Shown: positions 20,079 through 49,747, counted from the stretch's first letter. The stretch: 55,931 nt of DNA from Bacillales bacterium UBA7642 (GCA_002483745.1 DLIM01000025.1:1-55931), one strand, 5' to 3'. Translations and numbers: made by a program. Notes: generated by a model not told the origin, from the sequence alone.

Positions 20079-20546
20079 ATGAATAAAACCAATGTTATGA
20101 GAATTCTGGATAGTCTGAAAATCACCTATAAAGCTCATGATTACTCCAAAACGGATGCTTTAAGTGCAGATAGCGTAGCCAAGGCTCTTAATGAAAATCC
20201 CTTGAAAGTCTTCAAAACCCTCGTAACGGTTGGGAAAAGCAAAGAACACTATGTCTTCGTTGTCCCCTCTACAAGTGAGTTAGACTTAAAGAAAGCCGCC
20301 AAAGCCGCCGATGAGAAGAATATCGAAATGATCACTCAAAAAGAATTGCTGCCACTTACAGGTTACATACATGGTGGCTGTTCTCCGATTGGAATGAAGA
20401 AACGCTTAGCTGTCTTTGTGGATAGTACCGCTAAAGGCTTTGATACTATTTATGTCTCTGGGGGAAAGGTTGGTCTTCAGGTCGAACTAAGCCCGAATGA
20501 TCTAAATAAAGCCACTGATTGTCAGTTCGTTGATTTGCAAGCCTAA
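20079..20546 (+). CDS. ybaK: YbaK/EbsC-type Cys-tRNA(Pro) deacylase, copy B
   Basis: 155 aa, with FKTLV and GYIHGGCSPIG conserved. Confidence 0.8.
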   Translation: MNKTNVMRILDSLKITYKAHDYSKTDALSADSVAKALNENPLKVFKTLVTVGKSKEHYVFVVPSTSELDLKKAAKAADEKNIEMITQKELLPLTGYIHGGCSPIGMKKRLAVFVDSTAKGFDTIYVSGGKVGLQVELSPNDLNKATDCQFVDLQA

Positions 20547-22177: not shown

Positions 22178-23053
22178 TTAGTAATTAGCCTTGTTGACAG
22201 AACCGAAGAGCTTGATCTTCTCTTCAACCTTGGCCTTGATAGCTTCATAGCCAGGCTTCAATAACTTACGAGGATCGAAACCCTTGTTAAGATAATCATG
22301 AGCTAAGCCAGCAGCGCAATACTTTTCAGTAGCTTCAGCGAAAGCCAACTGGCATTCAGTGTTGACATTGACCTTAGAAACACCTTCGATGATAGCCTGT
22401 TTGACCTGATTATCAGGAATACCGCTTCCGCCATGTAAGACAAGAGGAATATTATTAGTAGCAGCATTGATCTTGGCTAAGACATCAAGATGAAGTCCCT
22501 TCCAATCCTTAGGATAGATGCCATGGATGTTACCGATACCGGCAGCTAAGCAATCAATACCTAAAGACACAATCTGAGCACATTCCTTAGGATCAGCAAT
22601 TTCACCATCAGCAGTGACGCCATCCTCAGTTCCACCAATGGAGCCGACTTCAGCTTCGATTGATAAACCATTATCATGAGCCAGATTTACTAACTCCTTA
22701 GTATGAGCAATGTTAGTTTCAAAGCTATCATGAGAACCATCATACATGATGGAAGTATAGCCGGCAGCAATGCAGGCTTTAGCACCTTCATAAGTGCCAT
22801 GATCAAGATGTAAGCAAACCGGAACAGTGATATTCAAATCCTTATCAAGAGCACGGACAAGCTGAGCAACAGCATAGAAGCCACCCATATACTTGCCGGC
22901 ACCTTCAGAAGTAGCAATGATGACAGGAGAGTTAAGTTCCTGAGCGGCTAAGAGAATCGCCTTAGACCATTCGAGGTTGTTGGTGTTGAAATGACCAACA
23001 GCATAGTGACCGTCTTTAGCAACTCTTAACATTCTTGTAAGATTAACTAACAT
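22178..23053 (-). CDS. fba: Class II fructose-1,6-bisphosphate aldolase
   Basis: 291 aa. Contains VPVCLHLDHG, VLHGGSGIP and GVSKVNVNTE motifs, with AGGAGG upstream. Confidence 0.95.
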   Translation of the reverse strand: MLVNLTRMLRVAKDGHYAVGHFNTNNLEWSKAILLAAQELNSPVIIATSEGAGKYMGGFYAVAQLVRALDKDLNITVPVCLHLDHGTYEGAKACIAAGYTSIMYDGSHDSFETNIAHTKELVNLAHDNGLSIEAEVGSIGGTEDGVTADGEIADPKECAQIVSLGIDCLAAGIGNIHGIYPKDWKGLHLDVLAKINAATNNIPLVLHGGSGIPDNQVKQAIIEGVSKVNVNTECQLAFAEATEKYCAAGLAHDYLNKGFDPRKLLKPGYEAIKAKVEEKIKLFGSVNKANY

Positions 23054-23297: not shown

Positions 23298-23326
23298 TTG
23301 ACAATTTTGCTATGAAGAAGTACGAT
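23298..23326 (+). promoter_or_regulatory. Candidate promoter of the FucI/AraA-like operon
   Basis: TTGACA (23298-23303) - 17 nt - TACGAT (23321-23326). It lies inside the 5' extension of the track ORF, which supports the ATG at 23348 as the true start. Confidence 0.45.
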
Positions 23327-23347
23327 TTACGTAAAGGAATTTGCCAT

Positions 23348-24920
23348 ATGTCTACAGTAAAACTTTTGCTAATTGATGAAAAAAGTATTTGCTATGGTTC
23401 TTCATCAAAATTTTATGACCTCTTTTTTGAAAAACTACATAATGAATGCCCGGAATTAAACTTTTCTTTTGCTAAATCAAACGATGATTTTTACTCTGGG
23501 GATAAGTGTTCTAGTACCAGGCATGAAAGGTGGTTTGGACCGGTCCTTTATTGATGCCATTTTTCACTTTACCCCACCTTTTTATATTCTTCCTATTCCT
23601 GGTTCAGATTCCACTTCTGTCGCAATTGATATGTCAGGATTCTTCAATAGATATAACATTCCACATATTGTCATGCTGGGAAGCGGTGAAGAAATCTGCA
23701 ATTCTATAAAACAATGTATTATTAACACCAAATTGATGGATACAACTGATTCTTTGTATATCGGCTTTATTGGGGCCAATGGTGCTATAAATACTTTCTC
23801 TTCTGATATGCCTATTCTTAAATTACGTAATAGGTTCAGCACAAAAATAAAAATCATAAGAGAAACCGAAGTCTTTGAGTCTTTCGTCAATACTCCTTCT
23901 ATGACCATCCCACAAAATTTCTTTAAAGTATCATGGGATTATTATGAGCTTGATAAATCCTACCGACTGTATTTAGTTTTAAAGAACATTATTAAGAAAT
24001 ATAAGCTAGACGGCCTAATGATTTCCTGCCTGGAAATCACGAAGTATCTAAAAACCACCGGTTGTTTAGCTTTGGCCAAACTTGATGAAGAAGGGTATTT
24101 GGTTTGCTGTGGAAATGATTTAGCCACAATACCAGCCGTCCTGATAGCTAAATCCATTCTTAAACTTCCTTGCTTTATTGCCCATCCCTATAACTTCCTT
24201 ACCGAAAAGAAATCGGTGGATATGGCCGGTTCTTATCTTTCGTATAACATTTGCCCTTCATATCAAGCAGACACTGAAGGCATGAGTAGACAAGGATTAT
24301 GCCTAAAAGGGAATATTCCTTTAGGCCCTGTCACTTTATTGAAGATTTCAGGTTTCACTAATTTTTATTTCTGCCTTGAAGCTAATCTCACTGAAAATAT
24401 TGAAGCACCTAATGTGGCAACAAATGCAGTCAGAATAGTTTTCGACAATTATGATATGTCTGATTACTCGCTACCTATCGGGAAAAGAATAATCATAATA
24501 CCAGGACATCAGAAAGCAAAAATTGATGATTATTTAATTCATCGTGGATTTACCAGTTTTAGAAAGCCTAAAAATCCAAAGTCCTATTATTTAGAGGTTT
24601 CCCACAAGAGTTTCATGTTAATCAGAGACCGTCAAAAGGTTGTCTCCTTTAGCAAACAGGTGGATTACTGCGGTTCTTTAAAGATTGGAACAGTAGTAAG
24701 ACTAATTGATGAAGACACGGGTGAAATAACTTCTATTAAGTTTGAATCGACCGAAACCTATAATTCTGCTCAGGAGATAATCAATAAGTTCGGTAAGTCA
24801 ATTTTGAATTATGATGGGACTTATATCAATATGTACGGAACCAAAAAAACGGTTGAGGAATTAGATAAAGATCATGAGGTATATTCAGTTGCTGTTTTAA
24901 ATAAATGTCCAAACCAATAA
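23348..24920 (+). pseudogene. FucI/AraA-like (sugar-isomerase-fold) protein paralogue 1, reading frame broken at a G4 run
   Basis: The N-terminal ~50 codons (MSTVKLLLIDEK...NDDFYSG) are in one frame and the remaining 470+ codons are in the +1 frame. Removing one G from GGGG (23498-23501) gives ...FSFAKSNDDFYSGISVLVPGMKGG..., collinear with paralogue 2. This could also be a homopolymer sequencing error. Confidence 0.55.
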
Positions 24921-24952
24921 CATTTCTAAATCTAAGGTGTTTTTTAAAAATT

Positions 24953-24981
24953 TTGTCAACTAAGCTGATTTATAATATAAT
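24953..24981 (+). promoter_or_regulatory. Candidate internal promoter for paralogue 2 and the ADA-like gene
   Basis: TTGTCA (24953-24958) - 17 nt - TATAAT (24976-24981), followed by AGGAGG and the ATG at 25004. Confidence 0.5.
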
Positions 24982-25003
24982 AAATTAGGAGGAAAGGAAA
25001 TTT

Positions 25004-26572
25004 ATGATAAATATTTTGGTGATGCCCTTACGTGCCAAAAAAACTCCGGCTGCATTAAGAAAAGCTGCAAATGGTTATATACAGGAACTTTTTGGCAATG
25101 ATGATTTCTCATTTAAAATCATTGAAAATGTTATTGATCTCTCAAAAGAAGGTCTAGGTATTGTTTTAGTGGAAACCAATTATATCCAGGAACAGTTTTG
25201 GAATATTCTTTTAAGACTTCCTTCTCCGGTTTTCCTTCTCCCTATACAAGGTAATGGCTCAATAGGAGCCGCTTCTGATATTTCTTCCTACCTTAATTTC
25301 CGTCATATTGAGTGCCATCTACTTATTGGCACAAACGATAATATCAGAAAAGTTATTAGGACTTATGCCTTTTCTGGCTCAATAAAAGGTTTCACTAACC
25401 ATATCGGTGTCATTATCTCCGAAGAAAATGTTATGCTGAACAGCTACAACGTCAATTACAAAGCCTTACGTGGATGTTTTGATATGGAGAGCGTATCAAT
25501 CTCCGAACAGGAGTTGGTCGATATTTTTAATTCTAAACCAAAAATGAAGATGCCTAGGGATTTCTTCAAATCCACTTGGGATTATTATGAGCTGGATAAA
25601 AGTTATCGTCTATATCTTGCCTTAAAGGATCTTATTAAGAAATACAATCTAAAAGGTATTACTATGGAATGCTTTTCCTTATGCAATACTTTAAGAGCTA
25701 CAGCCTGTTTAGCTTACGACAAGCTAACTGAGGAAGGGTACTACATTTCTTGCCACAATAACATTTCGGGAATAATCTGCGCCAGTATCTCCAACAATTT
25801 ATTTAAAGAACCTGTTTTCCAAGGCTCCACTTATTCTTTGGATTTTGAAAACAAGATTGCTATCTTCGCTAGCTCTTATGTTCCTACCTCCATGTGTGAA
25901 AGCTTTGCTTACGATACAGAAAGCCAAACCAATCTGGGTGTAAGCATCAAAGGCAAGATGAAGAAAGGGAACGTCACAATTTTTATTGTCTCCAATAATT
26001 TACGTTATTACTTTGCCGATGAAGGAACCATCATCGATAATCTTGATTTAGAATCCAATCCTCGGGCTACAGCAATCAAAGTTAAATGGAAAGACTTTGT
26101 TGCTCCAAGTCTAATGTCTTTTGTGGGTTCCCCAATCTATATCATCTACGGAAATCACAAAAAGGAATTAACTGAATTCTTTGAAAAACGTGGTTTCAAT
26201 TCCTATGATAAGAGAATTAATGATCTTACCCCCTCTATTGTTTATTTGCCTAACGATAGTTTTGAAAGACTTAAGAAGAGCAAACGGACTTGGGATATTT
26301 CTTTTAAGGATTCGGTTTTTGAAAGATTCAATGAAGGAACGACAGTTACAGTATTTAATGAAGACGTATTTGATGAGCACATCACTTACATAATTAACCG
26401 AAAAGTTGCCTATCCTGATTACTCTTCTTTAATCCGCGACTTAGAAACTGGAAAATACACTATCGATCCTAAAGAACTGCCAGCTGCTAAAAAAGTCTAT
26501 GATACCCGTTTTAAGGATGAGGATAAGAAGACAAAGTCTTTCTCACTTATCTTATTCCAAAGAATTCAATAA
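25004..26572 (+). CDS. FucI/AraA-like (sugar-isomerase-fold) protein paralogue 2 with a ~125-aa C-terminal extension
   Basis: The central block WDYYELDKSYRLYLALKDLIKKYNLKGITMECFSL...ACLAYDKLTEEGYYISCHNN aligns by eye to the AraA/FucI-family core (E. coli AraA ...GFHAFTTTFEDL...LAVQRLMQQGYGFAGEGD). The catalytic acidic residues are not conserved. Confidence 0.6.
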   Translation: MINILVMPLRAKKTPAALRKAANGYIQELFGNDDFSFKIIENVIDLSKEGLGIVLVETNYIQEQFWNILLRLPSPVFLLPIQGNGSIGAASDISSYLNFRHIECHLLIGTNDNIRKVIRTYAFSGSIKGFTNHIGVIISEENVMLNSYNVNYKALRGCFDMESVSISEQELVDIFNSKPKMKMPRDFFKSTWDYYELDKSYRLYLALKDLIKKYNLKGITMECFSLCNTLRATACLAYDKLTEEGYYISCHNNISGIICASISNNLFKEPVFQGSTYSLDFENKIAIFASSYVPTSMCESFAYDTESQTNLGVSIKGKMKKGNVTIFIVSNNLRYYFADEGTIIDNLDLESNPRATAIKVKWKDFVAPSLMSFVGSPIYIIYGNHKKELTEFFEKRGFNSYDKRINDLTPSIVYLPNDSFERLKKSKRTWDISFKDSVFERFNEGTTVTVFNEDVFDEHITYIINRKVAYPDYSSLIRDLETGKYTIDPKELPAAKKVYDTRFKDEDKKTKSFSLILFQRIQ

Positions 26573-26587
26573 CAAAGGAGTCCTCAC

Positions 26588-27520
26588 ATGATTGAACTTA
26601 ACATTAATTTAGAAGGTTCGCTTTCGCCAGAAACGTGTTTTGATTTTTATCGGGATCAAAGCTGTCCTCTTCCCTGTAAAGACGAAAAAGAAATGAAAGG
26701 TCTTCTTTCTATTACTAAACCTTTTTCGGATGAAGTCACTATTGAAAACAGCCTCTACAAAATGACTCTTCCGGTCCTTCAGCAGAATCAGGCTATCGAA
26801 AGAGCCGCTTACGAATTAGTTACTAAGTTAGCCAAGCAAGGTACTTCCTATGCTGAGATTGCTTTAGCACCAATCCGTTTCACTCACCAGACTTTATCCC
26901 AGTTAGCAGTCGTAGAAGCCGTAATTTCCGGTGTAAGCCGTGCCCGAATGGACTTGAAAGGTCAAATCCAAGTCAATCTGGTCTTAGGTTTAGTCAGGGG
27001 CGAGAAGGAATCTAATAACTTGGAGACTGTAGAAGTAGCTAACCGTCTAAAAGGGACTATTGTTAACGGTCTTATACTAGAAGGCGAAGAAAACACTCCG
27101 GTTAGTAAATACCAGAAGGTACTTAATCAGGCCTATAAGCTGAATATTCCTTTCAGTGTGGCTACTAACAAGCTTCAGGATACTAAGGATGCTATAACTT
27201 TAGGTGCTAAAAGAATCATTGGCGGATTGGCTTGCACAGAAGATGAGGAAGTCATCAAGATGATCAAAGACAAGAATGTCCTTATCGTCACTTCCTTGCT
27301 CCAGCTGTTCTATACCGGGAAGCTTAAGCGTTTAATTGATCATCCTCTTCCTCTGATGAAAAAGAATGGCCTTAAGGTTGTTCTATCCAGTTCCGATCCG
27401 GCTCTCTTTGATTCTAACATCAACCGCGAATACACATTGGCCCGTGACCTCTTCTTTATCTCCTATAAGGATTGCATGGATATGGAGAAGTTGGCTTTTG
27501 AAGAAAAGCTGATGAAGTAA
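26588..27520 (+). CDS. Adenosine-deaminase-fold (amidohydrolase superfamily) protein lacking canonical Zn/catalytic residues
   Basis: Collinear by eye with E. coli Add: LNINLEGSLSPET vs DIHRHLDGNIRPQT, AVVEAVISGVSRA vs GVVEAVIDGVREG, LILEGEE vs LDLAGDE, LSSSDPALF vs INTDDPGVQ. The HxH, HAGE and RIGHG residues are replaced. Confidence 0.6.
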   Translation: MIELNINLEGSLSPETCFDFYRDQSCPLPCKDEKEMKGLLSITKPFSDEVTIENSLYKMTLPVLQQNQAIERAAYELVTKLAKQGTSYAEIALAPIRFTHQTLSQLAVVEAVISGVSRARMDLKGQIQVNLVLGLVRGEKESNNLETVEVANRLKGTIVNGLILEGEENTPVSKYQKVLNQAYKLNIPFSVATNKLQDTKDAITLGAKRIIGGLACTEDEEVIKMIKDKNVLIVTSLLQLFYTGKLKRLIDHPLPLMKKNGLKVVLSSSDPALFDSNINREYTLARDLFFISYKDCMDMEKLAFEEKLMK

Positions 27521-27522
27521 AC

Positions 27523-27557
27523 AAAAGGCTGCCATAAAAGGTAGCCTTTTTGTTTTG
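27523..27557 (+). terminator. Rho-independent terminator of the FucI-like/ADA-like operon
   Basis: AAAAGGCTGCC / GGTAGCCTTTT hairpin followed by TGTTTTG. Confidence 0.7.
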
Positions 27558-27632: not shown

Positions 27633-28637
27633 CTAACGCTGACCGACTTCGTAAGGTATGCCTTCAGCTTTGGGGCACCCGGACTTCTTTCTAGTCATAA
27701 TCAAGACGATCAAGACAATGGCATAAGGAAGGAGGTTATAGAAGTACATCGGAAGAGGAAGGTTCTTTAGCAAAGGAATGGTATTATAAACGACTGCTAA
27801 GCTTTTAAGGAAGCCGAATAATAAGGAACCTAAACCAATCCAAAGCGGATTCCAGTTGCCGAAGATCATAATGGCTAAAGCTAAGAAGCCTAAGCCGCCA
27901 ACGGAGTTTTCAGCCTCAGTACCAGTCTGAGTAGCAATATAGATGAAGCCTCCTAAACCAGCTAAAGCACCAGAGATAGAGGTACCTAAGTATCTCATCT
28001 TCTCCACATTGATACCGACACTTGCCGCAGCCTGAGGATGTTCTCCGCAAGCTCTGATATGGGTACCGGTCTTAGACTTATAAAGCCAGATAGCCAAAAA
28101 GATAAACAAAATGATGATTATATAAGTGGAAGTATAGATTCCGTTAAAGAGGAAGTCTAACAAAGAATTATTGTTAATAGCATCAACGAATCCCGTAAGC
28201 CCAGCATTAGTATAAGTGCTAGTAGAAAGCTGGAAGGAGCCACCTGAAGTGATTCTTTCGGAATTGAAGAACATTAAGCCAAAGGTTGAAACCAAAGCTG
28301 GAGCCAACATATTCAGCGCTGTACCGCCTATTGTTTGATCAGCTTTCATCTTGATAGCAGCAAAAGATAATAGGAGTGAGAAGATACAGCCAGAAGCAGC
28401 ACCAATTAGCATGCCTAAAATGTAAAGCCATTGATTAGTTGAGGTATTGGCACCTAAGACGTTACCATTAACCATGAAACGGCAGAAGATACATCCGATG
28501 AAGGCACCGAAGATCATTTCACCATCGAGGCCTAAGTTGATGATGCCTGAGTGTTCTGAGAAGGCACCGGCCAAGGCTACAATCATCAAAGGAATCATAC
28601 AAAGAATCGTTTGATGAAGAATAAATGTTGCAGACAT
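27633..28637 (-). CDS. ABC transporter permease (BMP-family nucleoside/simple-sugar importer, second permease)
   Basis: A 334-aa polytopic protein. Its start overlaps the upstream stop (TAATG), and it sits in an operon with a BMP lipoprotein and a duplicated-ATPase subunit. Confidence 0.8.
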   Translation of the reverse strand: MSATFILHQTILCMIPLMIVALAGAFSEHSGIINLGLDGEMIFGAFIGCIFCRFMVNGNVLGANTSTNQWLYILGMLIGAASGCIFSLLLSFAAIKMKADQTIGGTALNMLAPALVSTFGLMFFNSERITSGGSFQLSTSTYTNAGLTGFVDAINNNSLLDFLFNGIYTSTYIIIILFIFLAIWLYKSKTGTHIRACGEHPQAAASVGINVEKMRYLGTSISGALAGLGGFIYIATQTGTEAENSVGGLGFLALAIMIFGNWNPLWIGLGSLLFGFLKSLAVVYNTIPLLKNLPLPMYFYNLLPYAIVLIVLIMTRKKSGCPKAEGIPYEVGQR

Positions 28638-29872
28638 TATTCATTACCTCCTTTTGTTTTAAGACCTTTAACAAGGATTTTCTCGTAAAGACTACTAGCT
28701 TGTTTAGCGTCCCTGTCCTTATGTTTAAATCTAATTAATAAGCCTTTGAAGAAATTAGAGAAACCAGCCAAGTAAATGATAACTGCAACAATGATATCAG
28801 CAAAGTATCTGTTGTAGCCAACACTGACTAAGTTAGTTCCTGAAGCATTGATGTAACGGATGAATAAGGCAGCAAAGATACAGGCAATAGGATTGCAGTT
28901 AGCTAAGAAAGCACCAGCAATTCCAGTGAATCCATAATCAGGTAAAATCTGATAAACGGATTGATACTGAATCTCAATACCAGGATTAAGGTAATACAAA
29001 GCACCACCAAGGCCAGCTAAAGCACCAGCCAAACCCATGGCAATAAGAATATTCTTCTTATCGTTAATACCAGCGTACCTAGCTGAGAACTTGTTCAATC
29101 CGCAGGCCCTCATAGAATAACCCAGGGTAGTCTTATTCATTAAAAGCCAGCATAAGATAGCGATAACAACAGCAAGGAATATGCCAATATCCAAATAAGA
29201 ATTGTTAGTCAATGCCTTTAAGCCTAGATTTGGTGTGCCATTGCCGGTTGAAGAAGTAGTAAGCAAATATGCCGATTTGCCGCCAGGCTTATTGACCATG
29301 AAAGAAAGGTTATCAAGAGAGAAAACCCAAGTGAAGATGTTGGCAGCAATCCAGTTTGTCATAATAGCGACAATAACTTCATTGATGCCAAAATAAGCTT
29401 TCAATGCGCCTGGAATAAGCCCCCAAAGTATGCCCGCAATTGCAGCAATGACCAAAGCTAAAATCCAAATAAACACGCCTTGTGTCGCATTAGAAGTGGA
29501 ATCAATAGAAAGAGCAACCAGTAATGCACACATCGTTCCCATTAAGAACTGGCCTGGGGCACCAATGTTGAATAGACCAGTCTTATAAGCAACAGCAACA
29601 CTCAAGGAAGTGAATATCAAAGGGACGGTATAGAAAACCATATTGCCAAAGTCATTAGCCTTATCAAGAGCAGTGAAAGGACCAGAGAATAAGTACCCTA
29701 AACCCTTTAAAGGATCAGCATCAGCAAGAGAAGAGGAGAAGGAAGCAAAAATCATTATAAGGAAACCAACCAGCAAACCAATAAAGACGCAAATCAAAGA
29801 TGAGCCCAAAGAAGTTAAACCATCGGCAGGAGCAGAAAACAAACGTTTGACTTGTTTATTTGATTTCTTCAT
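28637..29872 (-). CDS. ABC transporter permease (BMP-family importer, first permease)
   Basis: Polytopic. The ATG at 29872 follows GGGGG; the track start at 29890 is a TTG. It overlaps the ATPase 3' end. Confidence 0.8.
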   Translation of the reverse strand: MKKSNKQVKRLFSAPADGLTSLGSSLICVFIGLLVGFLIMIFASFSSSLADADPLKGLGYLFSGPFTALDKANDFGNMVFYTVPLIFTSLSVAVAYKTGLFNIGAPGQFLMGTMCALLVALSIDSTSNATQGVFIWILALVIAAIAGILWGLIPGALKAYFGINEVIVAIMTNWIAANIFTWVFSLDNLSFMVNKPGGKSAYLLTTSSTGNGTPNLGLKALTNNSYLDIGIFLAVVIAILCWLLMNKTTLGYSMRACGLNKFSARYAGINDKKNILIAMGLAGALAGLGGALYYLNPGIEIQYQSVYQILPDYGFTGIAGAFLANCNPIACIFAALFIRYINASGTNLVSVGYNRYFADIIVAVIIYLAGFSNFFKGLLIRFKHKDRDAKQASSLYEKILVKGLKTKGGNE

Positions 29873-31478
29873 TTTTGTGGCCCCCTTCAACTAAAGTAGC
29901 AACTTCTTTTTCAACGCCCTCACCAAGAGAGTTTCCATTTTCATCAACCTTCATTCTCTTAGCACCAGCCATGTAGAGACCAAGCTCAGGAATAGTGACA
30001 TTCTTGGGATCAAAGGAACCAACTATTTCACCTTCATACATGACTAGAATTTTATCAGCAAGATTCATAACCTCTTCAAGTTCAAGAGAAACAAGTAACA
30101 CAGCTGAACCCTTATCACGGTCGGCAATAATCTTTTTATGAATGGATTCTACGGCACCGACATCAAGACCACGGGTAGGCTGAACAGCCACAAGAAGTGA
30201 ATGATTCTTATCAAGTTCACGTCCAACAATGACTTTCTGCTGATTACCGCCAGACATACTTCTAGTAATCGTTTCGCTTCCCTGAGATGTACGAATATCG
30301 TAAAGCTTAATTAGTTGATCCGAATATTCTTTACGTTTCTTAAAATTAATCCATCCATGATTAGAAAATCTTTTATCACGGTATTGTTCAATAACCATAT
30401 TCTGCTGAATATTATAGTCAAGAACCAAACCATATTTCTGACGGTCTTCAGGAATATGAGACATACCATTTTTGATTTTTGTGAAAATGCTTTTCTTGGT
30501 AACATCAATATTGTTAAGAACAACATTACCCTTTTTAACATTTTCAAGCCCAGTAATGGCATTGACTAATTCCGTCTGACCATTGCCTTCAATACCGGCA
30601 ATGCAGACAATCTCTCCGGAATGAACCTTAAAGGAAACATCCTTCACAGTTTCCTTATGGGTATAAGGATTCTTAACAAAAAGATGAGAAACGTTCAAGA
30701 CTTCCTTCCCAGGCTTAGCATCAGCCTTAGGAACGTTGAAATGAACTTCACGTCCAACCATCATTTCAGCCAATTTCTGCTGGTTAGTATCCTTAGTAGC
30801 AATAGTACCAATACATTTGCCTTTTCTTAAGACCGTGCAGGTATCGGCTACTTCCATGATTTCATTAAGCTTATGAGAAATAAAGAGAATGGATTTTCCT
30901 TCTCTTGCCATATTCTTCATTGTCTTCATCAAGTTTTCGATTTCCTGAGGAGTCAAAACAGCGGTAGGTTCATCAAAAATGAGAATATCGTTATCACGAT
31001 AAAGCATTTTGAGAATTTCAGTACGCTGTTGCATACCAACAGAAATATCGCTGACCTTAGCATTAAGATCGACTTCCAAACCATATTTCTTCATCAATTC
31101 TTCGCATTTAGCACGGGCTTTTTTCTTAGTTACCCAGCCACCATGAGAATCTTCATCGCCCAAGATAATGTTATCAAGGACACTGAAGCACTCAACAAGC
31201 ATAAAGTGCTGATGAACCATACCGATGTGAAGAGCGGTAGCATCATTAGGTGACTTAATGTGAACTTCTTTTCCGTCTTTATAAATAGCGCCTTCATCTG
31301 GCTGATAAAGACCAAAAAGAACACTCATTAAAGTCGATTTTCCGGCACCGTTTTCTCCTAAAAGGGCATGAATCTCACCTTTTTTTAATTGAAGATTAAT
31401 ATGGTCATTAGCTCGGATTCCGGGGAAATCTTTAACGATATTCCGCATTTCGATTACATATTGAGGTTTTTCTTCCAT
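29856..31478 (-). CDS. ABC transporter ATP-binding protein with two fused ATPase domains
   Basis: Walker A GENGAGKST, signature VGMQQRTEIL, Walker B ILIFDEPT, and a second domain with MSGGNQQKV and LLVAVQPTRGLD. Confidence 0.9.
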   Translation of the reverse strand: MEEKPQYVIEMRNIVKDFPGIRANDHINLQLKKGEIHALLGENGAGKSTLMSVLFGLYQPDEGAIYKDGKEVHIKSPNDATALHIGMVHQHFMLVECFSVLDNIILGDEDSHGGWVTKKKARAKCEELMKKYGLEVDLNAKVSDISVGMQQRTEILKMLYRDNDILIFDEPTAVLTPQEIENLMKTMKNMAREGKSILFISHKLNEIMEVADTCTVLRKGKCIGTIATKDTNQQKLAEMMVGREVHFNVPKADAKPGKEVLNVSHLFVKNPYTHKETVKDVSFKVHSGEIVCIAGIEGNGQTELVNAITGLENVKKGNVVLNNIDVTKKSIFTKIKNGMSHIPEDRQKYGLVLDYNIQQNMVIEQYRDKRFSNHGWINFKKRKEYSDQLIKLYDIRTSQGSETITRSMSGGNQQKVIVGRELDKNHSLLVAVQPTRGLDVGAVESIHKKIIADRDKGSAVLLVSLELEEVMNLADKILVMYEGEIVGSFDPKNVTIPELGLYMAGAKRMKVDENGNSLGEGVEKEVATLVEGGHKNEEIK

Positions 31479-31555
31479 AATTTAGAATCCTTTCGAATTT
31501 TTAATAAAAAGGCCCTTACCTTTAAAGTAAAGGCCTCTTTTTGATTCTACAAAAA

Positions 31556-32695
31556 TTACTTATCTAAAGTAACTTTAATGTGGGTCATAGAAGCAGTATT
31601 AGTAGCCCACCAAGCAGCATCATTGATGTCAGAAGGAACAGTTCCATCAGGTACTACAGTACCATCCTGAACAGCTTTAAAGATAGTATTGTACTGAGCA
31701 GTAGTCCAAGTTCTAAATCTCCAGGAATCAGTATCAGTAGGAAGACCAGTGGCATTATCAGAAGCGCCAAGGTTCTGATTCTTGCCGCCAAGGGTTGAAT
31801 CCCAAGAGCCACCATAATACTGACCTAAAATCTTCTGGACAGAGGCATTTAAGCCCTTAGTAGCAGAAGTGATAACCTGTTTAGAAAGACTAGCCTGATC
31901 AACATCAACACCGATAATGTACTTATTAGTCTGTGAACCAACAGCAGCAACTACGGAGTTAATCATAGAACCACCGCAGGAGAAGACAACTTCAGTTCCG
32001 CTAGTATACCAACCAGAAATCTGAGTCTGAAGTTCAGTAGAAGCAGAGAAAGCAGAACTGTACTTATAAGAAATCTTTACTTCAAGAGGAGTGGTAACTC
32101 CCTTTTCTTGGGCACCAGCTTCGATACCTTGGACATAACCCCAAGCATATCTTTCACAAGCAGGGTTAGTTCCTCCGCCACCGAAAGTTCCACCAAGCTT
32201 AGTAAAGCCATCCATAGCAGCGCCATAACCGGCAAAGTAGCCAGCTTCCTGTTCCTTATAAGTAATAGCAGTTACATTGCTAAGAACAGTACCATTATCA
32301 ACTCCTTTATCATTGACGGAATCAGTTAGTGACCAGCCATCAACGAAGACGAACTTGACATCACTATGAGCCTTAGCAACGGTTCTCATAGCAGCAGCCT
32401 GAAGATAACCAGGGGCAACAATAACCTTGGCACCATTCTGGACAGCTAAGTTGTAAGCGGCAATACGATCGTTATCGTTTGCAGTTGAACCATTGGCAGG
32501 CTGATAGTACTTGTAGGAAAGCTTGTTGGCCTCGGCATAATCCTTAGCACCTTCATAAGTGCCTTGGTTAAAGCCACCATCCATCAACGAACCAACATCA
32601 GTTACAACAGCGATTTCATAAGTGCTCTTCTCACCGCAGCCAGCAAGAGCGAAGATAGAGGCAACAGCTAATAAACTGACTAATGATTTTTTCAT
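31556..32695 (-). CDS. BMP-family (PnrA/TmpC/Med-like) substrate-binding lipoprotein, probably nucleoside-binding
   Basis: Lipobox LAGC. Contains VVTDVGSLMDGGFNQGTYEG and VIVAPGY motifs typical of the basic membrane protein family. Confidence 0.85.
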   Translation of the reverse strand: MKKSLVSLLAVASIFALAGCGEKSTYEIAVVTDVGSLMDGGFNQGTYEGAKDYAEANKLSYKYYQPANGSTANDNDRIAAYNLAVQNGAKVIVAPGYLQAAAMRTVAKAHSDVKFVFVDGWSLTDSVNDKGVDNGTVLSNVTAITYKEQEAGYFAGYGAAMDGFTKLGGTFGGGGTNPACERYAWGYVQGIEAGAQEKGVTTPLEVKISYKYSSAFSASTELQTQISGWYTSGTEVVFSCGGSMINSVVAAVGSQTNKYIIGVDVDQASLSKQVITSATKGLNASVQKILGQYYGGSWDSTLGGKNQNLGASDNATGLPTDTDSWRFRTWTTAQYNTIFKAVQDGTVVPDGTVPSDINDAAWWATNTASMTHIKVTLDK

Positions 32696-33126: not shown

Positions 33127-34503
33127 TTAATCTTCCTTAGAAAGTCTTTTCTTAATCTCTTTGATGACTGAAGGGATGATGGGCTTATTGATTTCAACAT
33201 AAGAGCCTTGTCCTTGGATTTCTCTGATAGTTAAGCTTTGTCCATTGTAATTGATGGTTGTTTTTACCTTATATTCTATCTTTCCAACTAAAAAGCCGGC
33301 ATACATGAAATCATTCAGGCAGTCTTTTTCACTCTTCCAGACCTTGGTTATTTCGTTTTCTCTAAGAAGTACATTGATAGGTCTAATCTCACGATTGTCT
33401 TTTCTGACTTTGGGGGCGCCTTTATGAACTAAAGATGAAGGAAAATATGTTTTCCCTTGATTATTGGACACTAACCGGAATCTAAGAATGTTGTTGAATT
33501 CCTGATTCTCGTTAGGGGCATTAAAATAAATATCTTTCTGATAAGTGACTTTTTCAGTCTTAGAAAATTTCTTTAAATAGGCAATAGCCTTAGTATTAAG
33601 AACCGGAATTATTTCTTTAGTGATATAAAGGTCACCTGCTCTTAACTCAGAGAAGGTCATATCGTTGTTCAAAACAATATCAGCTTGGCTTCTTGAAGGA
33701 AGAATAGTAGATAAGTAGGCATTAACTATGTACTTAAAATACAAAGAAATAGTAAAGACATTATCTGCTGAAGTTAATTTAGCATCTCTGATGATACGTC
33801 TTAAGAAAAGAGACTTAGGGTTTCCATCGATAAAATTAGTAACTAAAGGAGCATCAGAAAGCTCATTGACTAAAAGTGGATCAAGCGCATAGATGCCTTC
33901 AACAATAATGACATCAAGTTTGGAGCCATCAATTATCTGCTTTGACGGCACCCTTTCAGAAACGACCTTAGAGTAGGTCTTTTCCTGTATTTTTTTGCCA
34001 TCTAAAAGTTTCTTAACATCCAAAGCAGCTTCTTTTAAGTTATAAACTGAGGGCTCATCAAAGTTCAGTTTCTTCCACTCATTCTCAAGTCCTTTAATAA
34101 AAAGAGGCATATCCTTAGCATGCAAAAGTTCTCTAGTATTGGATTCAATTTCTTTTAAGATCGAAGGCGAGTACTTTTTATCGAAAGGAACATTATAAAT
34201 AATCTTTTTAATTACCCTTTCAATCTCTTCAATGTTCTTCAATTTGCCATGAAAGTAATTCTGGTTAACTTTGTTAGGGATGATACCAGAGAGACCAAAA
34301 TTATATTGATCAAGAGAAATAATGACTGAGTGATGTTTACTGGCACCTAAAAGATTTCTCAAATACCTAGCCGCATAGGATTTCCCTGAGGAAGAAGCGC
34401 CAGAAATCAGAACCACAGCTTTTGGTTTAGTCTCCTGTATTTCTTCTATCAAGTCGAGATTAGCAAATCCAAACTTATCAATATGGTGATATTCAAAGCT
34501 CAT
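33127..34503 (-). CDS. Uridine-kinase-like P-loop kinase fused to a C-terminal CYTH-like domain
   Basis: ISGASSSGKSY (P-loop), SLDQYNFG, NFDEPSVYNL...LLDGKKIQEKTYS and VIIVEGIYAL match the Udk family. The C-terminal ~170 aa (QKDIYFNAP...ILRFRLV...HKGAPKV...KVKTTINYNGQSLTIREIQGQGSYVEIN) matches the CyaB/ThTPase (CYTH) pattern. Confidence 0.65.
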   Translation of the reverse strand: MSFEYHHIDKFGFANLDLIEEIQETKPKAVVLISGASSSGKSYAARYLRNLLGASKHHSVIISLDQYNFGLSGIIPNKVNQNYFHGKLKNIEEIERVIKKIIYNVPFDKKYSPSILKEIESNTRELLHAKDMPLFIKGLENEWKKLNFDEPSVYNLKEAALDVKKLLDGKKIQEKTYSKVVSERVPSKQIIDGSKLDVIIVEGIYALDPLLVNELSDAPLVTNFIDGNPKSLFLRRIIRDAKLTSADNVFTISLYFKYIVNAYLSTILPSRSQADIVLNNDMTFSELRAGDLYITKEIIPVLNTKAIAYLKKFSKTEKVTYQKDIYFNAPNENQEFNNILRFRLVSNNQGKTYFPSSLVHKGAPKVRKDNREIRPINVLLRENEITKVWKSEKDCLNDFMYAGFLVGKIEYKVKTTINYNGQSLTIREIQGQGSYVEINKPIIPSVIKEIKKRLSKED

Positions 34504-49669: not shown

Positions 49670-49747
49670 TGGTGCCCTTGAAGGGACTCGGACCCTTGGC
49701 CCCCTGATTCGAAGTCAGATGCTCTAATCCAGCTGAGCTACAAGGGC
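49670..49747 (-). tRNA. tRNA-Arg (anticodon UCG) with encoded CCA
   Basis: Minus-strand fold: GCCCTTG-TA-GCTC-AGCTGGATTA-GAGC-A-TCTGA-CTTCGAA-TCAGG-GGGCC-AAGGG-TCCGAGT-CCCTT-CAAGGGC-A-CCA. The cloverleaf closes completely, with anticodon loop CU-UCG-AA. Confidence 0.9.

Follow-up and report, generated by a model that had tools for sequence, protein, structure and literature searches.

We analysed a stretch of 55,931 nt from Bacillales bacterium UBA7642 (GCA_002483745.1 DLIM01000025.1:1-55931), hereafter the window, and in it a group of three plus-strand genes that lie between an aldolase gene and a hairpin terminator. The first two, par1 and par2, are paralogues whose products carry an isomerase-type core and a further domain at the C-terminus, and the third encodes an adenosine deaminase-like (ADA-like) protein. 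All three proteins have lost the catalytic residues of the enzymes whose folds they share, and the group stands next to an ABC importer of the Bmp/PnrA type. The features of the locus are listed below (ORF, open reading frame; aa, amino acids).

22178-23053, minus strand: fructose-bisphosphate aldolase gene, divergent from par1
23298-23326, plus strand: promoter-like site before par1, TTGACA-17-TACGAT, 10/12 matches, weak evidence
23348-24920, plus strand: par1 overall, two ORFs in the window
23348-23554, plus strand: N-terminal fragment of par1, a 68-codon ORF ended early by a frameshift, homologous to the N-terminus of par2 and of its relative P0002
23469-24920, plus strand: main ORF of par1, degenerate AraA/FucI-fold core followed by a C-terminal ASCH-like domain (~24543-24917)
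24953-24981, plus strand: best promoter-like match of the region, TTGTCA-17-TATAAT, 11/12 matches, directly upstream of par2
25004-26572, plus strand: par2, 522 aa
25004-26194, plus strand: residues 1-397 of par2, degenerate AraA/FucI-fold core as judged by AlphaFold2 (AF2) and Foldseek
25562-25657, plus strand: residues 187-218 of par2, conserved patch specific to the subfamily, with a helix at 194-214 in the model
26195-26572, plus strand: residues 398-522 of par2, ASCH-fold (PUA-like) domain without a canonical ASCH motif, by Foldseek and profile
26588-27520, plus strand: ADA-like gene, 310 aa, with the ribosome-binding site AAAGGAG upstream
27523-27550, plus strand: hairpin terminator, 11-bp stem and T-run, between the convergent ADA-like gene and importer permease gene

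An earlier note on this DNA had reported three consecutive plus-strand genes followed by a terminator at this place, and both are there, the latter as a good hairpin. The promoter-like site at 23298 that it had placed before the first gene also exists, but such sites are no commoner in the region than in shuffled sequence (17 found against 17.0 expected) and a better match lies at 24953-24981; as a promoter, the former site would leave a leader of only ~15 nt to the ATG at 23348. The match at 24953-24981 is followed by a strong ribosome-binding site, TAGGAGGAAAGG, ahead of par2. The ADA-like gene starts 16 nt past the par2 stop, and both genes have strong ribosome-binding sites. The note had called the group an operon of three. 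The genes do share a strand, but the term is too strong, as par1 is frameshifted and par2 has a near-consensus promoter of its own; a single three-gene transcript is possible, and it is not established because the better promoter-like match stands directly before par2. A scan of the region upstream of par1 against Rfam found neither a riboswitch nor a leader RNA, and an alignment of the upstream regions of the window and of three related loci (L006, L008 and L009) revealed no common operator.

The two paralogues share 30% identity over 398 residues (E 1e-61). Neither matches any Pfam model, those of the AraA and Fucose_iso domains included, and in NCBIfam the only match is SftI (sulfoquinovose isomerase, NF048012), scoring 17-31 bits where the cut-off is 700. 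Word-indexed homology searches, with par2 or with an alignment of six members, returned only P0001 and P0002, so that an exhaustive phmmer search of 1.84 billion representative sequences was needed. This search yielded 667 relatives, the top ones of ~400 aa aligning over par2 residues ~35-395 with E values from 1e-44 to 1e-17. Among its full-length representatives, only P0008, P0010 and P0014 have a length of ~520 aa, P0002 from the word-indexed search being the fourth; the remaining relatives have ~390-420 aa and align to the same part of par2. Neighbour-joining groups the six ~520-aa proteins into a single clade, which lies within the ~400-aa family. A scan of metagenome contigs detected a single distant locus, and a scan of genome contigs one true subfamily locus, in a metagenome-assembled genome (MAG) labelled Bacilli bacterium, together with distant ~400-aa members. 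The ~400-aa relatives themselves show weak matches to SftI and to the Pfam models AraA_central and Fucose_iso_C, and carry the IMG label "L-fucose isomerase-like protein". An AF2 model of par2 built on the family alignment reached a mean predicted local distance difference test score (pLDDT) of 90, and in Foldseek it matched L-arabinose isomerases best (E 8e-18), followed by L-fucose/D-arabinose isomerases (FucI ~1e-10). The profile of the ~400-aa family matches AraA sequences in the PDB (E 4.5e-8) and places the family motif CEGD on AraA AEGD. Model and profile thus support a three-domain AraA/FucI fold for the paralogues (residues 1-397 in par2), and the assignment made by eye in the earlier note is correct.

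The motif residues of the ~400-aa family are almost all lost in par1 and par2. Across 120 family members, the polar residues of the motifs GG.E, NSL.A..E, G.PS.WL, CEGD, N, HC, HFE, CRTQ and NH(H) are 97-100% conserved. When the profile is aligned to E. coli AraA, E306 is matched by the Glu of CEGD, H350 lies within one residue of the HC pair, and the AraA "AHH" that contains H450 is matched by NHH; the E333 position is Ala throughout the family. At the E306 position, par2 reads CHNN (H) and par1 CGND (G), which bears out the loss of the catalytic Glu noticed earlier by eye. The later His motifs are likewise gone, as then suspected: par2 has S and par1 has G at the H350 position, and the H450 region reads SPI in par2 and KRI in par1 (P/I and R/I). 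The other ~520-aa proteins are also altered, each in its own way, the CEGD position reading CHNN, CHND, LKND and CAQG among them. Of 29 listed conserved family positions, par2 keeps ~6 and par1 ~7, mainly cysteines. Among the six members, mean pairwise identity is only 0.31 at the 36 columns that are at least 90% conserved in the family, against 0.52 at the columns that are 70-90% conserved, indicating that the old active site is released from constraint and not rebuilt into a new conserved pocket. Constraint has shifted elsewhere, to residues 187-218 of par2 (FF..WD.YELDK.YR..L..K..I.KY...G), which are conserved only in the ~520-aa subfamily and form largely one helix (194-214) in the AF2 model. 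This helix is a candidate for a new interaction surface.

The ~400-aa family is spread over anaerobic bacteria and archaea, including Halanaerobiales, Bathyarchaeia, Hadarchaeota, Spirochaetes and Clostridia (L034, L037, L038-L041; P0011-P0157). It has five conserved cysteines in addition to the invariant CEGD/HC/HFE/CRTQ/NHH motifs, and one member of 864 aa (P0073) is a fusion with an M28 peptidase domain.

Both paralogues extend ~125 residues past the isomerase core, and the full-length Foldseek search matched PH0355 in this part. Modelled alone, the C-terminal domain reached a pLDDT of 75, and its top 14 Foldseek matches were all ASCH proteins, including PH0355, AF2351, a Zymomonas ASCH protein, E. 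coli YqfB, PF0455 and PF0470, with TM-scores of 0.41-0.58 on query normalisation and at most 0.67 on target normalisation. A profile of the domain built from six sequences matched PH0355 over its full length (E 4.8e-4), and an independent label, the IMG name of P0010, is "ASC-1-like (ASCH) protein". These matches assign the ASCH/PUA-like beta-barrel fold to the C-terminus of par1 and par2. None of the six members matches the Pfam ASCH model (PF04266). In sequence alignment, the segment aligned to GKKKIEGR of PH0355 (GxKxxExR-type) is not conserved among the six, and the YqfB set Lys21/Thr24/Arg26/Glu74, of which the Lys-Thr-Glu triad has been defined (PMC6972931), finds no conserved counterpart. 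By analogy with characterised members of its fold, a link of the domain to nucleoside salvage is plausible.

The ADA-like protein is recognised by Pfam PF00962 at 124 bits (cut-off 27; E 9e-36) over residues 3-304, that is the whole barrel, and matches solved deaminases in the PDB with E 8e-17. Its score with the equivalog model TIGR01430, 152.3 bits, lies below the cut-off of 216.55. Aligned to solved deaminases and intact relatives, with the numbering of mouse/human-type ADA, the zinc ligands H15 and H17 are replaced by N and N. A 3-residue deletion takes out the HAG of HAGE, so that H214 is lost (A stands at its position), and E217 is replaced by K. H238 is replaced by G (RIIGG) and D295 by S (SSSDP). 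All four zinc ligands, E217 and H238 are therefore replaced, D296 being the sole survivor, and the residues that the earlier note had listed as non-canonical (N-x-N, the K for E217, RIIGG, SSSDP) are found at those positions by alignment. In public records, the protein (cluster of P0003) is annotated as "adenosine deaminase", one fragment as "aminodeoxyfutalosine deaminase". The third gene thus bears the name of an enzyme although its product should be unable to bind zinc, judging from these residues; the naming is likely a functional mis-annotation and will propagate.

Tail-to-tail with the ADA-like gene stands the importer, which the earlier note had rightly identified as a nucleoside-type ABC system.

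27633-32695, minus strand: Bmp/PnrA-type (CUT2) ABC importer, tail-to-tail with the ADA-like gene
27633-28637 and 28637-29890, minus strand: permease genes (BPD_transp_2)
29856-31478, minus strand: ATPase gene (double-ABC)
31556-32695, minus strand: Bmp lipoprotein gene (PF02608, E 7e-30)

The Pfam composition of the importer (a Bmp lipoprotein, a double-ABC ATPase and two BPD_transp_2 permeases) was read on near-identical contigs, and its substrate is presumably a nucleoside, as for the characterised family members PnrA and BmpD. Near-identical contigs from independent samples (L003-L005, L042) contain the same three genes. A MAG labelled "Bacilli bacterium" (L008/L013) has two ~520-aa copies and a dead ADA-like gene followed by a Bmp importer on the same strand; the PRK, DJ-1 and PAD neighbours of L008 are 75% identical to those of the window. 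The ADA-like protein of L008, whose ORF we extended from the called start to an upstream ATG, has YVN, the same 3-residue deletion, RIIGG and SSD. L009-L012 (aldolase 77% identical) combine a single ~520-aa copy (P0010) with a deaminase gene that begins 33 nt behind it and is intact (HLH, HAGE, GH, DD), the importer coming next. In L006 (aldolase 74% identical), the importer and an intact deaminase are present and there is no isomerase-like gene. The related lineages thus display stages: an intact deaminase alone, a dead isomerase-ASCH gene with an intact deaminase, and two dead copies with a dead deaminase. The dead ADA is confined to the branch in which the isomerase-ASCH gene is duplicated; as the two probably represent one evolutionary event, this is an observation and not a correlation. 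One ~520-aa copy is followed by a Bmp lipoprotein gene (L029, P0014).

The three catalytic-type relatives examined have similar neighbours. The gene of P0011 is tail-to-tail with a Bmp importer, and that of P0016 is the last of a Bmp-ATPase-permease-permease operon converging on the same PRK gene as in the window. The gene of P0012 lies ~3 kb from CUT2-type permease and ATPase genes and adjoins genes for an ABC-F-type ATPase and a phosphoribosyl pyrophosphate (PRPP) synthetase. An importer of this kind therefore flanks all relatives examined, and its association with the family is older than the loss of catalytic residues, since the closest catalytic-type relatives are also importer-linked. 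The rest of the neighbourhood consists of housekeeping genes and has no defence-system signature; PADLOC reported only a generic ADA-domain similarity of the ADA-like protein to CARF_ADA (E 3e-10) and no match for par1 or par2. The three genes occur together in other lineages, and Pfam, NCBIfam and PADLOC contain no well-characterised family that claims their products, two points on which the earlier note had asked for a check.

Several further observations concern the surroundings. The 458-aa protein encoded at 33127-34503 (minus strand) has a PRK/uridine-kinase-family domain in its middle only (residues 144-279), with long unannotated flanks, and its gene stands next to the importer in convergent orientation, an arrangement conserved in the window, L006, L008 and L038 (56-75% identity). 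Elsewhere, the longest ORF of an alpha-amylase-family gene, from a TTG at 20530, overlaps the end of a tRNA_edit-domain gene by 17 nt (20530-20546), probably a longest-ORF artefact because gene callers on related contigs start it ~30 nt later. In the whole 56-kb window, only a tRNA gene at 49673-49747 (minus strand) exceeds the Rfam gathering threshold.

The earlier note had taken par1 to be a single gene, and in the window it is broken. A 2-bp deletion between 23504 and 23505 (site 23500-23509) splits the frame: in an alignment of the window, L003 and L042, the window reads GGGGATA--AGTGTT and the intact L042 allele GGGGATATTAGTGTT. The deletion is common to the window, L003, L004 and L005, and par1 is one intact ORF in at least two other assemblies, those of L042 (L042:1421-1545; protein P0221) and of protein P0228, in which the N-terminal fragment is continuous with the main ORF. 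Intact and broken reading frames of par1 are a presence/absence polymorphism within the species. Since the deletion is common to several assemblies and missing from others, many strains either do without par1 or tolerate a split or truncated product of it; possible restarts of the main ORF are the ATG at 23484 or that at 23523. Two other accounts of the lesion were rejected. An extra T in a T5 run is ruled out by the intact L042 allele, which shows a 2-bp deletion 12 nt downstream, and programmed frameshifting was set aside because intact and deleted alleles coexist and nothing slippery or stimulatory is evident in the context. The reconstructed par1 used in the motif, tree and conservation comparisons is wrong in ~4 residues where the two parts join, well away from the motifs that were scored. 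Most public gene calls of par1 have 465 or 478 aa and start past the lesion.

How should such a locus be read? Tentatively, and with a confidence somewhat short of even, we favour the view that it encodes lineage-restricted pseudoenzymes, proteins that do not act as catalysts and would work with the Bmp-type nucleoside importer next to them or in nucleoside salvage. The ancestor would have been a ~400-aa protein of the AraA/FucI superfamily, importer-linked and still catalytically equipped, to which an ASCH-fold domain was added at the C-terminus and from which the metal and catalytic residues were lost. The isomerase-ASCH gene would then have become tightly coupled to a neighbouring adenosine deaminase gene, and in the branch of the window it would have duplicated while its deaminase partner also lost the zinc site. 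The present proteins might act by binding; their partners could be one another, the ADA-fold protein, the importer or a nucleoside, and their role could be, for instance, that of a scaffolding or regulatory subunit. In this strain par2 and the ADA-like protein may form the working pair, par1 being dispensable.

Four observations weigh against this proposal. The ~520-aa subfamily is very rare, the 1.84 billion representatives containing just six clusters of it (50% identity), par1 is frameshifted in many strains, and constraint within the species is weak (pN/pS, the ratio of non-synonymous to synonymous polymorphism, of 0.2-0.8 against 0.03 for the aldolase, on small counts). The fourth is that the importer of the window is a different orthologue from, and inverted relative to, that in L008/L009, so that coupling to one specific importer is not strict. 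The window importer is 59-72% identical to that of L006 and 33-60% to those of L008/L009, although the PRK, DJ-1 and PAD neighbours of the window are closest to those of L008, which suggests that the importer cassette may have been replaced or rearranged.

The main rival, which we consider unlikely, is slow decay: the genes would be relics that have drifted since the isomerase and deaminase activities became unneeded, and would still be open because decay is incomplete or their expression harmless. The comparison of the window with L042, a near-identical contig, bears on this directly.

par1: 7 synonymous and 6 non-synonymous differences, pN/pS ~0.23
par2: 4 synonymous and 12 non-synonymous differences, pN/pS ~0.79
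ADA-like gene: 3 synonymous and 4 non-synonymous differences, pN/pS ~0.37
Aldolase gene: 9 synonymous and 1 non-synonymous difference, pN/pS ~0.03

The gap between the three genes and the neighbouring aldolase speaks for decay, and the same can be said of the par1 frameshift being common in the population, of former active-site positions that vary freely among the six relatives, and of an orthologue identity of only 27-44% where flanking genes have 60-76%. However, pN/pS stays below 1 in every comparison, closer strains included, for which the counts are likewise small. Apart from par1, no ORF is shortened in any of four diverged lineages or in the complete variants seen, and public assemblies contain 12 distinct full-length variants of par2 and 13 variants of the ADA-like protein. 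The dead ADAs of the window and of L008 have both remained full length (310 and 309 aa) at 44% identity, their neighbours having 60-75%; as a neutral sequence of 310 codons drifting to this level should hold many stops and indels, their state argues for retention. These two proteins also have derived features in common (the 3-residue deletion that removes HAG, RIIGG and SSD), and the conserved helix specific to the subfamily, the strong ribosome-binding sites and the tight gene spacing likewise speak against relics.

A second alternative, rather improbable in our view, is that the proteins have turned to a new reaction, in which imported nucleosides or the sugars of these are the substrates and residues other than the ancestral ones do the work. 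Candidates are three retained cysteines (C223 and C235, both invariant, and the almost invariant C250), the His found in place of the catalytic Glu in par2, P0002 and P0008, and the retained ADA-fold residue D296. In favour of this reading, besides the conservation of the cysteines, the exchanges E->H at CEGD and H->E at HFE in par2 and P0008 could keep a metal site (an H/H/E combination in P0008), and the ASCH family includes nucleoside amidohydrolases used in salvage. Against it, apart from family-wide cysteines, no catalytic-type residue is conserved in all six members, neither the ASCH motif (GKKKIEGR in PH0355) nor the YqfB Lys-Thr-Glu/Arg set has a conserved counterpart, and the entire metal site of the ADA fold is lost. 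New chemistry on old scaffolds stays a rival because the three cysteines and some of the His/Glu swaps remain. The preference for non-catalytic pseudoenzymes could also be given a more specific form, which at present is a long shot: AraA-fold/ASCH-fold and metal-free ADA-fold subunits would build a nucleoside-sensing complex that binds nucleosides and, much as in inducer exclusion, exerts post-translational control over the Bmp-type importer or over salvage enzymes, docking through the par2 helix 187-218. That the locus is an ordinary set of sugar isomerases and an adenosine deaminase, with catalytic residues present but misaligned, is very improbable: the public name "adenosine deaminase" and the Pfam score above threshold would fit, but the idea is contradicted by every alignment, as hidden Markov model (HMM), profile-profile and PDB alignments agree in showing non-catalytic residues in the catalytic columns, the score with TIGR01430 (152) misses the cut-off of 216.55, and in the dead ADAs the HAG segment with H214 is deleted and the HAGE Glu E217 substituted. 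Profile and structural alignments likewise reveal none of the shifted catalytic residues that the earlier note had named as a possible objection. Its proposal of a ligand-binding, regulatory or new-chemistry module has been neither refuted nor demonstrated; the lack of conservation among the six relatives where the active site used to be speaks against a conserved ligand pocket there, and all three genes are weakly constrained. The ASCH-fold domain, the par1 deletion, the clade of six clusters within a family whose nearest members are importer-linked and the stepwise lineages had been missed.

If the genes are functional, they would be an unusual bacterial example of a small cluster in which every gene encodes a pseudoenzyme, and the intermediates kept in sister lineages would provide a natural series for the conversion of enzymes into binding or regulatory proteins. 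The ~400-aa L-fucose isomerase-like family deserves attention as well, since it is widespread and unstudied; its members closest to par1 and par2, from uncultured Bacilli, adjoin nucleoside-type importers, and it may hide an unknown nucleoside or pentose step in anaerobes.

The gene set combines known folds with a narrow distribution and weak constraint, and no described system matches it: literature searches on SftI, on bacterial ADA pseudoenzymes and on PnrA/ADA operons turned up no description of such a set, in keeping with the statement of the earlier note that it had no characterised counterpart. Its parts can nevertheless be compared with known proteins. AraA and FucI (4r1o, 7cwv, 2ajt, 1fui) have the three-domain fold in common with par2 residues 1-397, but at an identity of only 10-13%, and in par1 and par2 the equivalents of E306, H350 and H450 are replaced, an ASCH-fold domain is added, and the neighbours are nucleoside importer genes instead of ara or fuc genes. 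The ~400-aa L-fucose isomerase-like proteins (P0011, P0012, P0016) are the nearest sequence relatives, with the same core and, in the closest members, the same adjacency to an importer, and are distantly related to NCBIfam SftI (17-77 bits against the cut-off of 700). Unlike par1 and par2, they are without the ASCH domain and keep the invariant motifs that the paralogues have almost all lost. ASCH proteins (PH0355, 2z0t; PF0455, 1s04; the E. coli N4-acetylcytidine amidohydrolase YqfB, 9kyf) share the fold of the last ~125 residues of par2, with TM-scores of 0.55-0.67, whereas here the domain is fused to an isomerase-fold core and has neither a Pfam ASCH match nor the motif. Adenosine deaminase (PF00962; mouse ADA 1a4l, 3rys) is collinear with the ADA-like protein over the whole TIM barrel, and the intact deaminases of L006 and L009 are syntenic with its gene at an identity of only 33-40%, the neighbouring genes having 57-77%.

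The arrangement as a whole has a possible likeness in HisZ, which acts with HisG as a regulatory pseudoenzyme subunit. There, as in L009, where a dead isomerase-ASCH gene lies 33 nt upstream of an intact deaminase gene, a dead paralogue is kept beside an active partner with which it presumably works. In the window, by contrast, the presumed partner is also dead.

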